Of a stretch of 64,000 nt of DNA, positions 561 to 3,755 are shown piece by piece; within the stretch, counting starts at the first letter, position 1; each line of letters starts with the position of its first letter. The DNA lies in sequence record NC_008720.1. One strand, written 5' to 3'. This DNA is from Escherichia phage N4. Position numbers and translations under genes: made by a program. The notes under the pieces are model-generated. The model searched no databases and was not told where the DNA came from. It saw nothing but the letters and a program-made list of their open reading frames with translations.

Positions 561-605
561 TAGTAAATCATAATGGATAGGCATTTAACCTATGAGGAAA
601 TTAAA

Positions 606-1445
606 ATGCCTGTTCTTAAAGTGATGTTTCATAAAGACACCAACGTAGCTACTGTACTGGATGCCAGTGGTAGCCTTAGTGATGGTTCCGTTGAGGTGGG
701 TACTTTCCATCATCCTGATGAAACGTATCCTGATAGTGTAACTATCTATCATGGTGTACGTGACCTGCTGTATAAACGCAGTGCTAAAGACCCATCTCAA
801 ACTGCTTCTTACCCAAATAACATTATCAATATGCAAGTTATCAGTATTGATATGAAGGCAACTCCTCGCCTGATTTTGGGTACTGCATTGCCTCGTGTAA
901 TCTCTACTATTGAAGGTAAAGATGTAACCTGGCATGTAGATGTTGCTGGTGGTAAAGCACCATTGACTTACAAGTGGCAATTTAAAGCTAATACTGTAGG
1001 TGCTGCTTTCGCTGATATTGATTCCGGAGAGAATCCTACAGCTAAAACTGCAACTCTTATTAATCATGCAGTAACTGCTGAATCTGCTGGTACTTATAAA
1101 GTCATCGTTACTGATGCCAACGGTACTACTATCGAGAGTTCTTCTCTGCTGGTTGTAGGAGTTCAGGAACCACCTGAAGTAGCTTCTATTGTTGCTTATC
1201 CAAGTCCACTGGCTCTATCAGTAGCTGATGATATTACCGATGGTAAAACAGTTAAGTTTTCTTCCCTGCCTGCTGGCTCTTTGATTGGCACTCTGTCCAT
1301 TAAGACCCAGCCTGACAGTGGTAAAGCTACTGCTGAGATTAGTGGTAATGTACTGACAGTTAAACCTGTAGCCGCAGGTGACACTACTGTAGTGGTCACC
1401 AACGGAACCAAGGAAGTAACTGTTACGGTTAATGTTACAGAGTAA
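606..1445 (+). CDS. Ig-like domain protein, putative capsid decoration protein (N4 gp17-like)
   Basis: Track ORF 573-1445; start moved to ATG 606, which has SD GAGGAA 9 nt upstream. Beta-rich Ig-like segment (GKDVTWHVDVAGGKAPLTYKWQF...AGTYKVIVTDANGTTIESSSLLVV). First gene after RNAPII, as for the N4 decoration protein (recalled). Confidence 0.5.
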   Translation: MPVLKVMFHKDTNVATVLDASGSLSDGSVEVGTFHHPDETYPDSVTIYHGVRDLLYKRSAKDPSQTASYPNNIINMQVISIDMKATPRLILGTALPRVISTIEGKDVTWHVDVAGGKAPLTYKWQFKANTVGAAFADIDSGENPTAKTATLINHAVTAESAGTYKVIVTDANGTTIESSSLLVVGVQEPPEVASIVAYPSPLALSVADDITDGKTVKFSSLPAGSLIGTLSIKTQPDSGKATAEISGNVLTVKPVAAGDTTVVVTNGTKEVTVTVNVTE

Positions 1446-1466: not shown

Positions 1467-1489
1467 AGCCCTCCTTGTGAGGGCTTTTT
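1467..1489 (+). terminator. Rho-independent terminator
   Basis: AGCCCTC-cttgt-GAGGGCT followed by TTTTT. Confidence 0.6.
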
Positions 1490-1514: not shown

Positions 1515-1829
1515 ATGGCTAATAAGAACCGTCTTCGTGTATGGCATATCCCTCAAGTACCCGGCAAAGCCTTCTATGTTGAAGTAGATTCAGTAGAAGA
1601 AGGTGTACGTATCATTGATATACTAGCCAACTATGACCTATTCCAGTATGAGAACAATATCAAAGGTGATTACTGCAATGTCTCTGGTTTACAGATGTAT
1701 GATGAACATATCACTGATGATGAAATGGAAGAGATGGGTCTGACTGACCGTTGGGTAGACTGGTACTATGAAGATGACCAGAACTTTTTTGATAACCCGA
1801 AAGAGTATTTGAATAATCTCAAGAAGTAA
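1515..1829 (+). CDS. Hypothetical protein (104 aa, acidic C-terminus)
   Basis: ATG 1515 preceded by SD AGGAGAG; bracketed by terminators. Confidence 0.5.
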   Translation: MANKNRLRVWHIPQVPGKAFYVEVDSVEEGVRIIDILANYDLFQYENNIKGDYCNVSGLQMYDEHITDDEMEEMGLTDRWVDWYYEDDQNFFDNPKEYLNNLKK

Positions 1830-1892: not shown

Positions 1893-1903
1893 ACGGAGTA
1901 CAA

Positions 1904-2110
1904 ATGTTTAAGTTCTTAGACCTTATCTGGGCAGTCATTTTGCTGGTTGCTACAGGCTTTGTATATGGCTTCTTGCTCCCATCAATGGTGTCTGCTTTAG
2001 ACAGCATCATTGTTGTTATGGGCTTGATAGTCTGTATTGTGTGGCCTCTTATCGTAGGCCGTATCGTTTATCTTACAGTTAAGAAAAGGATGAGAAGAAA
2101 ACATGTATAA
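1904..2110 (+). CDS. Small membrane protein (68 aa, two predicted TM helices)
   Basis: ATG 1904 with GGAG 6 nt upstream, downstream of the terminator. Two hydrophobic stretches; 3' end overlaps the next gene by 8 nt. Confidence 0.45.
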   Translation: MFKFLDLIWAVILLVATGFVYGFLLPSMVSALDSIIVVMGLIVCIVWPLIVGRIVYLTVKKRMRRKHV

Positions 2111-2939
2111 GTACATTGCAGTAGCAATTGCAGGGCTAATCATTGCTCTAAGTTTAACGAGCTGCTATGACCGAGTTGAACCAGGTAATGTAGGTATTAT
2201 CGTTAACCGTCTCGGTGAAGATAAAGGCGTGGAAAATGAGGTTAAAGGTGTAGGCCGTTACTGGCTCACTTGGAATGAAGAACTTTATACATTCCCGACC
2301 TTTAAGCAGATGAAGACCTATGATGGTCTGTTCTACTTCCAACTGTCTGATGGTACTCAGATAGGCCACCAGATGGCTATCAGCTATAAAGTAAATCCTA
2401 CTAAGGTAACTAATATCTTCCAGACGTATCATAAGGGAGTTAATGAAATTACCGAACAGGATTTACGCCAACGTATTGCTGATGTACTTAACAGGCAGGG
2501 TAACCTGATTAACACCGATACATTTATTGATGGTGGTAAATCTAAGTTACTGGATAGTGTCACGGACACAATCCGTAAAGAGATGGAACCAGTGGGGATT
2601 GATATTATTGCTATCTCCTGGATTGGTGCTCCTGAATACCCTGATAACGTTAAACGTGCCATTAATGCCAAAGTAGAAGCTACTCAGAAAACTCTGCAAC
2701 GTGAGCAAGAGATTCAGCAACGCGTAGCTGAAGCTAATATGGAACGTGAACAAGCTAAGGGTGTAGCAGATGCTATTCTGATTAAGGCTAAAGCAGAGGC
2801 TGATGCTATTCGTTTACGTGGTGAAGCACTCACCGAGAACCCAAATGTAATGCAACTGGAAGCCATTAATAAGTGGAATGGTACATTACCTACCACAATG
2901 ATTCCTGGGGCTACTACACCTTTCGTTAATGTGAAATAA
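2103..2939 (+). CDS. SPFH/band-7 (prohibitin-like) domain lipoprotein
   Basis: N-terminal signal with lipobox LTSC. Core VEPGNVGIIVNRLG... and an Ala/Glu-rich C-terminal helix (IKAKAEADAIRLRGEALTENPNVMQLEAINKW) typical of HflK/C-prohibitin proteins. Confidence 0.6.
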   Translation: MYKYIAVAIAGLIIALSLTSCYDRVEPGNVGIIVNRLGEDKGVENEVKGVGRYWLTWNEELYTFPTFKQMKTYDGLFYFQLSDGTQIGHQMAISYKVNPTKVTNIFQTYHKGVNEITEQDLRQRIADVLNRQGNLINTDTFIDGGKSKLLDSVTDTIRKEMEPVGIDIIAISWIGAPEYPDNVKRAINAKVEATQKTLQREQEIQQRVAEANMEREQAKGVADAILIKAKAEADAIRLRGEALTENPNVMQLEAINKWNGTLPTTMIPGATTPFVNVK

Positions 2940-2945
2940 CTAAGC

Positions 2946-2976
2946 AAACCCACCATTACGGTGGGTTTATTTTTTG
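2946..2976 (+). terminator. Rho-independent terminator
   Basis: AAACCCACC-attac-GGTGGGTTT followed by ATTTTTT. Confidence 0.6.
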
Positions 2977-3001
2977 AAGTTATCTAACACCGGGTATTCC
3001 T

Positions 3002-3226
3002 ATGAAAGTAAATGTTTTACGTCGTAAGAAAGTTCCTTTCTTTCAAATCAATTGTGGTTCATGTTTTCAACACGATGATGACTACTATATGAAGTGTAGT
3101 TATCAATCTAAAGAACACTTCTATGGTGTGAATTTACAAACAGGTCATCTGTTCACATTTGATAATAATGACTTTGTTTATCCTGTGACTTTAGAAGCAT
3201 GTATTCCTGACCCACTTAATAAATAG
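3002..3226 (+). CDS. Hypothetical protein (74 aa, Cys-containing)
   Basis: ORF-track ORF, stop 2 nt before the next gene; contains CGSC...C...C spacing that could be a zinc ribbon. Confidence 0.4.
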   Translation: MKVNVLRRKKVPFFQINCGSCFQHDDDYYMKCSYQSKEHFYGVNLQTGHLFTFDNNDFVYPVTLEACIPDPLNK

Positions 3227-3227
3227 T

Positions 3228-3584
3228 ATGGCTCAAGAAAAGAATCGTCGTCAGACACTTATCGAACGTATTCAGGCCAGAATCAAATTACAGGACTTAG
3301 GCTATACCGTTAATGGTCAGCCTAGTCTCTGTCACATCTGGACTGGTTCACATTCAGGTAATGGACGTGGTGGGCAATATGGCAGGATTTCCGTGAATGG
3401 AGTTACCTCTGCAACTCACATTATTGCCTATACCCATTATCATGGTTATATCCCCAATAAGATGCAAGTAGACCATCTCTGTAATAATCGTCTGTGCTGT
3501 AATCCTGAACATCTTGAATTGGTTACTCACCAAGAGAACCAGAGAAGAAGGGCTAAGCGTTCTAAATCTAAAGGAAATAAATAA
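3228..3584 (+). CDS. HNH homing endonuclease (HNH_3-type)
   Basis: CHIWTG...GYG-like segment, then VDHLCNNRLCCNPEHLELVTHQEN (about nt 3470-3540), a classic HNH_3 catalytic/zinc motif; basic C-terminal tail. Confidence 0.8.
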   Translation: MAQEKNRRQTLIERIQARIKLQDLGYTVNGQPSLCHIWTGSHSGNGRGGQYGRISVNGVTSATHIIAYTHYHGYIPNKMQVDHLCNNRLCCNPEHLELVTHQENQRRRAKRSKSKGNK

Positions 3585-3755
3585 ATGATTAAAAAACTTA
3601 TTTGTAAACTTATTGCAGCAATCTTAATTAGTATTATTGGTATTGCATGGGTAGTTTCTACTCCAGATAACGTTATGCAACAACTTTATTATGCTGTGTA
3701 TACATCAACCTCTTTTGTTTGGGTTTATGTAATGTACCGTATTTGCAGCGACTAA
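3585..3755 (+). CDS. Small hydrophobic protein (56 aa), not in the ORF track
   Basis: ATG 3585 overlaps the HNH stop (TAAATG); SD AAGGAA 8 nt upstream; predicted membrane helix (LIAAILISIIGIAWVV). Confidence 0.35.
   Translation: MIKKLICKLIAAILISIIGIAWVVSTPDNVMQQLYYAVYTSTSFVWVYVMYRICSD

Follow-up and report, generated by a model that had tools for sequence, protein, structure and literature searches.

Genes 19 and 20 of Escherichia phage N4: a predicted SPFH lipoprotein and its small membrane-protein partner

Described SPFH systems and the N4 locus

High-resolution structures of the cages built by SPFH proteins (prohibitin, HflK/C, stomatin, flotillin and erlin) are recent, and what these cages enclose is debated. 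Here we describe two adjacent genes of Escherichia phage N4 (NC_008720.1), located at positions 1,904 to 2,939 of a stretch of 64,000 nucleotides (the window). The first specifies gp19, a protein of 68 amino acids (aa) with two transmembrane (TM) segments, and the second gp20, a predicted SPFH (band-7) lipoprotein. While the SPFH identity of gp20 is already known from public annotations, what appears to be new is its near-obligate, coupled pairing with a motif-bearing miniprotein family across very distant phages. In N4 the pair is a two-gene unit bracketed by terminators, and we lean towards an architecture in which its products form a periplasm-facing SPFH cage in the inner membrane together with a TM hairpin partner.

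The nearest solved relative of gp20 is prohibitin (PHB1/PHB2), both by family profile [4e-11] and by fold [8rrh, 1.2e-13]. Each has an SPFH domain, a long coiled-coil helix and a C-terminal tail, and each belongs to an energy-transducing membrane (the mitochondrial inner membrane for prohibitin) with the domain on the non-cytoplasmic side, the side being predicted in the case of gp20. The two share only 16-17% identity. Prohibitin has an N-terminal TM helix and two paralogues, whereas gp20 has a putative cleavable lipoprotein signal, a single paralogue and a separate gene for a two-TM partner. The same differences separate it from E. coli HflK/HflC, an inner-membrane SPFH cage which faces the periplasm and has a historical link to phage lysogeny. 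Here the fold [7vhq, 7wi3, 9cz2] and the profile [about 6e-8] again match, but HflK and HflC are two paralogues with N-terminal TM helices, while the N4 locus has one SPFH gene with a lipobox signal peptide and no TM anchor.

The arrangement of the genes follows the same logic as the SPFH-NfeD operons (QmcA-YbbJ, YqiK-YqiJ and archaeal PH1511-PH1510), in which an SPFH gene is co-transcribed with that of a small membrane partner lying under or inside the cage. QmcA itself matches gp20 in fold [8z5g] and profile; it faces the cytoplasm, whereas gp20 is predicted to be exported. The partners in these operons possess an NfeD/OB-fold domain, while members of the gp19 family consist of a hairpin of 60-80 aa only, and gp19, which at 68 aa is too short for NfeD, gave no match to Pfam NfeD [PF01957] at E<=0.1. 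Because gp19 lacks this domain the gp19-gp20 operon is not an SPFH-NfeD operon, and the partner family with the motif P-x-L-I-S-x-x-D-T appears to be specific to phage SPFH lipoproteins.

A further phage relative is MbpS of Kayvirus (phage K/812), a gp20 homologue of about 25-30% identity whose gene is likewise preceded, with a stop/start overlap, by that of a small membrane protein. It differs from gp20 in its uncleaved TM anchor and its location in the lysis cassette, and its neighbour MbpV, with one TM helix and a charged coiled coil, lies outside the gp19 family. MbpS possibly aids Sec-dependent export (PMC7150955). In Staphylococcus phage 812 (locus L016, 1-2220) the SPFH gene and the small gene upstream of it come right after holin and endolysin, the only context seen by us that links the module to lysis genes.

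A conserved pair of genes and its products

The pairing was followed in 104 loci with an SPFH gene, which were scanned with a miniprotein profile and which fall into nine clusters (single linkage, 50% SPFH identity). Seven of the nine carry the miniprotein. The miniprotein gene lies 5' of the SPFH gene on the same strand in 102 of the 104 loci, and the commonest junction, present in 71, is a 4-nt ATGA overlap. In the two exceptions, Kayvirus and phiCbK-like, this place is taken by another small membrane protein, whose gene likewise shows a stop/start overlap. In the reverse test all nine miniprotein relatives with context had an SPFH lipoprotein gene downstream, in 12 of 13 places, the exception (contig L101) being the sister of L102 with the SPFH gene deleted. 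Between 91 distinct pairs the median identity is 24% for the miniprotein as against 63% for the SPFH protein. We conclude that the miniprotein is a conserved partner and not an incidental open reading frame (ORF). In N4 itself the gp20 start (ATG-2103) lies inside the last codons of gp19, giving an 8-nt overlap, ATGTATAA (2103-2110), which agrees with a preliminary description of this DNA, made from the letters alone, in which the miniprotein was said to overlap the start of the lipoprotein and to be coupled to it.

One sequence joins the two proteins. P0074, a protein of 347 aa with 8 member sequences which comes from a 94-kb P1-like contig, joins miniprotein and SPFH precursor in frame, reading ...KLINEK followed directly by TLISAAIIFGSLCLTGCDRVEPG... 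The fusion is topologically consistent with the model of gp19 and gp20 given below; it may be a real fusion or a frameshift in a 20-nt overlap.

Variants which have lost part of the module were also seen. The metagenome contigs L101 and L102 have identical neighbours (about 2000-3100), with L101 carrying the miniprotein only, followed by a gap of 219 nt. Truncations occur at locus L104, where 136 aa of the Band_7 protein are left, and at L074, where the miniprotein has only 35 aa.

Judged by its profile and predicted fold gp20 is a genuine SPFH protein, as had first been proposed from the sequence. It matches Pfam Band_7 [PF01145; 1.2e-23, 84.5 bits against a cut-off of 23.6] over residues 24-210, and the same domain was found in 120 of the 120 gp20 homologues listed; in PHROGs it corresponds to phrog_200 "lipoprotein" [3.3e-94]. 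A search of the PDB with the single sequence gave weak prohibitin coiled-coil matches only, so that profile and fold searches were needed. In the former prohibitin was best, followed by HflK/HflC [6e-8 to 2e-7], QmcA and erlin. For the latter an AlphaFold2 (AF2) model was built on an alignment of 27 sequences (mean predicted local distance difference test score, pLDDT, 79.9). Foldseek aligned it at about full length with the human prohibitin complex, E. coli HflK/C, erlin1/2 and stomatin [1e-13 to 1e-10], and at lower rank with flotillin, QmcA and major vault protein. The model predicts strands at residues 22-97 and 166-178 and helices at 99-161, 181-245 (65 residues) and 247-257; beyond these follows a conserved C-terminal tail in the region which, as we read the structures of other SPFH proteins, makes up the cage cap. 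By sequence gp20 is nevertheless not an orthologue of HflC, since in the NCBIfam hflC equivalog test (TIGR01932/TIGR01933) it reached 20.7 bits against a cut-off of 134.4 and gave no hflK match.

The N-terminus of gp20, MYKYIAVAIAGLIIALSLTSC, shows a basic n-region, a hydrophobic h-region and a lipobox, L18-T19-S20-C21 (Cys21 codon 2163-2165), which agrees with the pattern [LVI][ASTVI][GAS]C, and the earlier call of a lipoprotein can be retained as a prediction. Most of the 104 loci have a lipobox, and its Cys is conserved in at least 90% of the gp20 family. The +2 residue is Asp in 64 of these loci and Tyr in 10; N4 has Tyr22-Asp23 and some N4-like relatives have Trp. In E. coli Asp, Tyr and Trp at position +2 of a lipoprotein lead to retention in the inner membrane (the +2 rule); these retention residues are said to have been described by Seydel et al. 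in 1999. Homologues from Ruegeria RpAliso, two further loci (L094 and L097) and Kayvirus (MbpS) have an uncleaved hydrophobic TM anchor in place of the lipobox and can therefore only sit in the cytoplasmic membrane, and the inner membrane is also where an alpha-helical hairpin partner belongs. The extracytoplasmic position of prohibitin, HflK/C and erlin fits an exported lipoprotein. These features suggest that gp20 is anchored at the inner membrane and faces the periplasm. Because the linker between Cys21 and the first SPFH strand is just three residues long, the domain would have to lie flat on the membrane surface.

In gp19 the hydrophobic segments TM1 (about aa 7-25) and TM2 (about aa 35-57) are followed by a basic tail, KKRMRRKHV; the translated ORF thus has the two segments with which the 68-aa miniprotein had originally been credited. 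The protein matches phrog_1130 [1.4e-20], which is filed under "moron / host takeover", and no family model for the gp19 family was found in Pfam or NCBIfam. From 1.84 billion representative proteins a gp19 profile drew 858 clusters at 50% identity; the 150 best matches are all stand-alone proteins of 47-133 aa, with no fusions among those 150. Among 17 diverse phages the ORF just 5' of the SPFH gene was repeatedly one specifying 60-100 aa with two TM segments and a similar intervening stretch. This stretch (aa 26-40 of gp19, PSMVSALDSIIVVMG) carries the family motif, which in 91 distinct homologues reads P(89/91)-x-[LM](85)-[IV](78)-S(85)-x-x-[DSN](88)-[TS](77)-x-x-V(79)-x-x-G(86). The C-terminal tail of the family contains on average 3.2 Lys+Arg in about 10 residues and the turn between the helices is approximately neutral. 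Based upon the positive-inside rule both ends of gp19 would be cytoplasmic and the conserved turn periplasmic, that is, on the same side as gp20.

Gene order, distribution and annotation

The N4 region is 98.3-98.8% identical to that of fourteen Enquatrovirus (N4-like) coliphages, and in annotated relatives the ORFs of the pair are labelled as similar to N4 gp19 and gp20. An alternative start for gp19, TTG-1868, gives an extension which would be translated through the terminator-like hairpin at 1870-1892. Because of this hairpin, the spacing of the GGAG (5 nt upstream), the use of the 207-nt (68-aa) version in the two annotated relatives examined and the alignment of homologues from other phages, which begin at the equivalent Met, we take ATG-1904 to be the start; the shorter version had been preferred from the outset. 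The features of the region are collected in Table 1.

Table 1. Features at and around the gp19-gp20 pair, in positions of the window
Feature	Positions	Strand	Basis or remarks
gp17, decoration protein	573-1445		
Hairpin with T-run	1467-1485	+	
gp18	1515-1829	+	Pfam GP17 "superinfection exclusion gene product 17", E=1.5e-56; phrog_1510
Terminator-like hairpin	1870-1892 (stem 1870-1886)	+	GCCCTCC-TAT-GGAGGGC + T6; 7-bp stem with 6 GC pairs; minimum free energy -13.6 kcal/mol, z -2.1
Ribosome-binding site, GGAG	1895-1898	+	Read from sequence
gp19, 68-aa helical-hairpin membrane protein	1904-2110	+	ORF; phrog_1130
gp19 conserved inter-helix motif	1979-2023 (aa 26-40)	+	Column counts; alignment
gp20, 278-aa SPFH/band-7 lipoprotein precursor (predicted)	2103-2939	+	ORF; Pfam; predicted model
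gp20 putative signal peptide and lipobox, then Tyr22-Asp23	2103-2165	+	Sequence; family alignment
SPFH domain	2172-2732 (aa 24-210)	+	Pfam PF01145 envelope; strands and helices of model
Long coiled-coil helices, as in SPFH cage wall (predicted)	2643-2873 (aa 181-245, 247-257)	+	Model; weak prohibitin-2 coiled-coil alignment
Conserved C-terminal tail, K-W-[ND]-G-x-[LT]-P...P-F-[IV]-x-[IV]-K	2871-2936	+	W258, G260 and P263 invariant
Terminator-like hairpin with T-run	2946-2975 (stem-loop 2946-2968)	+	-14.3 kcal/mol, z -4.2; 0/200 shuffles as good
gp21	3002-3226		Weak zf-UBP-like match, E~1e-3
gp22, HNH endonuclease	3228-3584		
gp23, tiny (56 aa) hydrophobic protein	3585-3755	+	phrog_23946, E=4e-37

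The hairpin at 1870-1892, an annotated terminator in relatives AL25 and Jura, closes the upstream gp18 unit, and the stronger one at 2946-2975, also an annotated terminator in relatives, closes that of gp19-gp20. Since the T-run of the former is only 11 nt from the gp19 start, the pair must be read either through this terminator or from a promoter upstream of it. A sigma-70 scan, which does not cover N4 middle promoters, found a single promoter-like site (1789-1817) upstream of the terminator, at chance frequency. The hairpins at 1467-1485 and 1870-1886 have nearly the same stem (GCCCTCC...GAGGGC plus a T-run), and together with that at 2946-2968 they bracket the small units gp17, gp18 and gp19-20. 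Phage Moo19 has the same gp18 neighbour, and gp18 was not seen beside the pair outside the N4-like phages. Downstream of the pair come gp21, the HNH endonuclease gp22, gp23 (just 3' of gp22 and another tiny hydrophobic protein), an ATPase, a metalloprotease-like protein and dCTP deaminase. In annotated relatives the pair lies on the same strand as the RNAPII genes, between these and dCTP deaminase.

Relatives of gp20 were found by tblastn in 700 of 50,697 phage records. The carriers are N4-like phages of Escherichia, Shigella, Klebsiella and Erwinia, Shiga toxin (Stx) and other lambdoid phages, P1-like phage-plasmids, and rV5-like and FelixO1-like myoviruses. They also include jumbo phages, phages of Pseudomonas, Burkholderia, Rhizobium, Ruegeria and Caulobacter, and crAss-like phages; the 275 Staphylococcus records among the matches are Kayvirus MbpS. 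Relatives of the Stx-phage copy, mostly with at least 80% nucleotide identity, occur in 536 of 5,426 complete E. coli genomes (about 10%), at 419 chromosomal and 199 plasmid places. N4 gp20 is 55-65% identical to its homologues in lambdoid, P1-like and jumbo enterobacterial phages and 25-41% identical to those in phages of other hosts, with the rV5-like (47%) and Erwinia FelixO1-like (33%) proteins as separate enterobacterial lineages. Identity thus depends in part on the host and not on how the phages are classified, which suggests horizontal exchange and a host-directed role.

In the Stx prophage the pair is part of the leftward early operon, between the immunity region and xis/int, and nothing above chance resembling a sigma-70 promoter or terminator of its own was found around this copy. 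The presence of the module varies within a genus (PMC8540360). Based upon this patchiness, the variants which have lost one gene and the position of the Stx-prophage copy inside a larger operon, the module looks accessory. Given its place in that operon, and in the early/middle block of N4, it probably works in the course of lytic growth and not from the prophage.

In P1-like elements (Ro157c2YLVW, PhiR41_1 and E. coli plasmids of about 95 kb) the SPFH module lies in the tRNA/ban region, where P1, which itself lacks the module, has plp/upl. In P1 (NC_005856; locus L111, 9473-10042) plp, annotated as "putative lipoprotein", overlaps a tRNA-Thr gene; upl stands for "upstream of plp". We rejected upl and plp as counterparts of gp19 and gp20: Plp (125 aa) against gp20 gave a BLASTP E-value of 55, and Upl against the miniprotein profile an hhalign probability of 0.1%. 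As P1 Plp and Upl are unrelated in sequence, the "non-essential" result obtained for P1 by CRISPR interference (PMC10695390) is not transferable to the N4 pair.

gp20 is not known to be a virion protein of N4. SPFH homologues have been detected in phage preparations by liquid chromatography-tandem mass spectrometry in the case of ENKO_388 of the Klebsiella jumbo phage fENko-Kae01 (locus L009; from the annotation) and of gp200 of the Vi01-like phage Sajous1 (PMC10892097). Such detection may reflect membrane carry-over or genuine abundance.

The miniprotein gene is missing from some public annotations: it is present and unannotated in Stx2a phage Stx2_95 (LC567838; locus L005, 2256-2444), with a 4-nt overlap with the SPFH start, and in crAss phage cr128_1 (NC_055885; locus L015, 1254-1457), with an 11-nt overlap. 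In phage K17alpha62 a feature given as "tail length tape measure protein" covers the stretch that matches the miniprotein. In 4MG, PUTH1 and phiEa104 the miniprotein gene is two genes 5' of the SPFH gene, and in PUTH1 the adjoining small ORFs bear the names "putative capsid protein" and "CysA". Wrong labels are common for the SPFH lipoprotein, among them "serine protease", a frequent one (OLB145, AL25 and Stx2_95), "putative transposase" (Hafnia phage SPARTY) and "transferase" (EspYZU08).

Possible roles in the infected cell

We propose that gp19 and gp20 act as one translationally coupled membrane module made from the early/middle-strand gene block of N4. On this proposal gp20 would be exported, lipid-modified at Cys21 and held on the periplasmic face of the inner membrane, where copies of it would join by way of the long helices and the C-terminal tail to form a ring or cage fencing off a patch of membrane, as do prohibitin, HflK/C, erlin and stomatin. 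gp19 would be an N-in/C-in hairpin whose periplasmic turn (P26...S30..D33-S34...G40) docks to gp20. It would supply the TM element, which in HflK/C and prohibitin is part of the SPFH protein itself and in other SPFH operons comes from NfeD, and the stop/start overlap would keep the two proteins in a fixed ratio. An accessory module swapped between unrelated phages of the same hosts would presumably be aimed at the host envelope and not at virion assembly.

Several points weigh against this proposal. The 104 loci are redundant, as their collapse into nine clusters indicates. The identity matrices of the two families correlate (r=0.62, Mantel 0/2000, 91 distinct pairs), but adjacent genes are co-inherited anyway and the correlation is weak evidence of contact. 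The C-terminal tail of gp20, which should close the cage, is modelled at low confidence (pLDDT about 46-57). The +2 residue varies, being Glu (rV5-like phages), Asn (Erwinia phages) or Ser in some enterobacterial-phage lineages, so that an outer-membrane location is possible for some members. Since gp20 fails the hflC equivalog test and has a single SPFH paralogue, binding of FtsH cannot be deduced by homology. Finally, the inner-membrane location, the contact between gp19 and gp20 and the formation of a cage are what we infer, and lipidation and oligomerisation are predictions.

As to what such a cage would do, it might corral inner-membrane proteins (gp19 and probably a host client, for example FtsH) and so alter their access or turnover, or the integrity of the membrane; for any specific client this is a tentative suggestion, and we would not expect a given guess to be right. 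The literature searched offers annotations and speculation: we found no functional study of phage SPFH proteins, of N4 gp19/gp20 or of SPFH proteins in N4-like phages, and in publications as late as 2026 the role of the phage SPFH protein is termed unclear. A CRISPRi-ART paper, transposon-mutagenesis preprints and an E. coli phage-resistance screen contain nothing on gp19/gp20, nor, with regard to N4, on hflK, hflC or ftsH.

Superinfection exclusion at the inner membrane, which the preliminary description had suggested beside manipulation of host envelope proteins, is an unlikely explanation with several points in its favour. gp19/gp20 would block entry of a secondary genome into an infected or lysogenic cell in the manner of T4 Imm, a small protein with two TM helices, and Sp, which is periplasmic and membrane-anchored. 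The pair is predicted to be located in the envelope and, as it lies on the early/middle strand with the RNAPII genes to one side and dCTP deaminase to the other, to be made before the late genes; the module is accessory, horizontally mobile and carried on prophages and phage-plasmids by about 10% of complete E. coli genomes; PHROGs places gp19 among the "moron / host takeover" proteins; and the pair adjoins gp18, with its highly significant match to a superinfection exclusion family. That neighbour, however, is separated from the pair by its own terminator and was seen beside it in the N4-like phages only. T4 Imm and Sp, T5 Llp, Cor and P22 SieA are small early inner-membrane, periplasmic or lipoprotein factors, and the analogy is one of function only: none has an SPFH domain, no sequence or profile similarity to gp19 or gp20 was detected, and their families are not among the Pfam and PHROGs matches of the pair, which are only Band_7, phrog_200 and phrog_1130. 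Nor did the PADLOC models match either protein at E<=0.1. The carriers, including phages of Gram-positive bacteria and of Bacteroides, differ in receptors and injection routes, which argues against a block specific for one receptor or conduit, and the Stx-prophage copy sits in the leftward early operon with neither a promoter nor a terminator to itself, so that its expression in the lysogen is improbable.

A second and somewhat less likely role is that of an FtsH modulator, a mimic of HflK/C whose cage would enclose or titrate host FtsH and so change the turnover of its substrates, namely regulators of the CII/CIII type in temperate carriers and sigma-32, LpxC or membrane proteins in lytic ones. 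HflK/C and prohibitin, the nearest solved relatives by fold and profile, have FtsH-type (AAA) proteases as partners and the extracytoplasmic orientation predicted for gp20. In the Stx/lambdoid prophages the pair occupies the early-left operon between the immunity region and xis/int, and phage lambda has its FtsH inhibitor, cIII, in the corresponding early-left position. Against this, gp20 does not pass as HflC, has no TM helix and is one SPFH paralogue where the E. coli complex has two, and the text of the paper on a genome-wide screen for N4 host factors makes no mention of hflK, hflC or ftsH. Most carriers, moreover, are obligately lytic. A possible link of phage SPFH proteins to lysogeny through HflK/C has been raised before, with the caveat that obligately lytic phages also carry the gene (PMC8540360).

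It is very unlikely that the module is a device for lysis timing or membrane integrity, in which the cage would sequester a holin-like or pore-forming gp19 or stabilise the energised membrane so that lysis is delayed or scheduled. Very late lysis and a very large burst are characteristic of N4. gp19, with 68 aa, two TM helices and a basic C-terminal tail, has the generic shape of a class II holin (small, with two TM helices and a charged C-terminus), but this shape is not specific to holins and the match to Pfam Phage_holin_3_6 is insignificant [0.038, 14.5 bits against a cut-off of 28.4]. In Kayvirus mbpS and mbpV, the product of the latter described as holin-like (PMC7150955), come directly after holin and endolysin; MbpV, however, is not in the gp19 family, and in N4 (decoration protein, gp18, gp21, HNH endonuclease, gp23 and ATPase), as in most other carriers, the neighbours are not lysis genes. 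The natural variant L101, moreover, retains the miniprotein without the SPFH gene.

Most improbable is that the proteins do not work together. In that case gp20 would be a lipoprotein of the outer membrane or a secreted one, serving for instance in lysogenic conversion or virulence, and gp19 an unrelated co-transcribed membrane peptide. In favour of this, Glu, Asn or Ser at +2 would direct the lipoprotein of some lineages to the E. coli outer membrane, the fENko-Kae01 and Sajous1 proteins were found by mass spectrometry of phage preparations, and the HflK/C-like PM0222 of a Pasteurella multocida prophage (homology to gp20 unchecked) is reported as a virulence factor and in outer-membrane vesicles (PMC9872710). 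The two-way linkage, the overlap conserved across very distant phages, the motif kept in a fast-diverging miniprotein and the natural fusion would, however, be hard to explain without a joint function, and for the TM-anchored homologues the inner or cytoplasmic membrane is the only place.

The module is widespread, and nothing so far points to an unexpected mechanism. Phages would carry a compact, lipid-anchored version of the SPFH cage with a dedicated TM partner of 60-80 aa, and the carriers include well-known and therapeutic phages: N4, relatives of phage K, Pseudomonas phages of the PAK_P type and Stx phages. Because it consists of two genes, looks non-essential and occurs in a genetically tractable phage (N4, or its 98.7% relative AlfredRasser of BASEL), the module offers a handle on the function of SPFH cages in bacteria and on the remodelling of the inner membrane by phages. 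It is a rather doubtful, if broader, proposition that the cage and hairpin are a self-contained, phage-specific device which, from crAss-like phages of Bacteroides to N4, lambdoid and jumbo phages, carries out a general and as yet undescribed step in the takeover of the cytoplasmic membrane. In one version a cage around a phage pore or hairpin, a host protease or a site of DNA entry would keep the cell energised and closed to competitors until lysis. On this broader reading the miniproteins, with P-x-L-I-S-x-x-D-T in their loop, would count as a new kind of SPFH partner that differs from NfeD.

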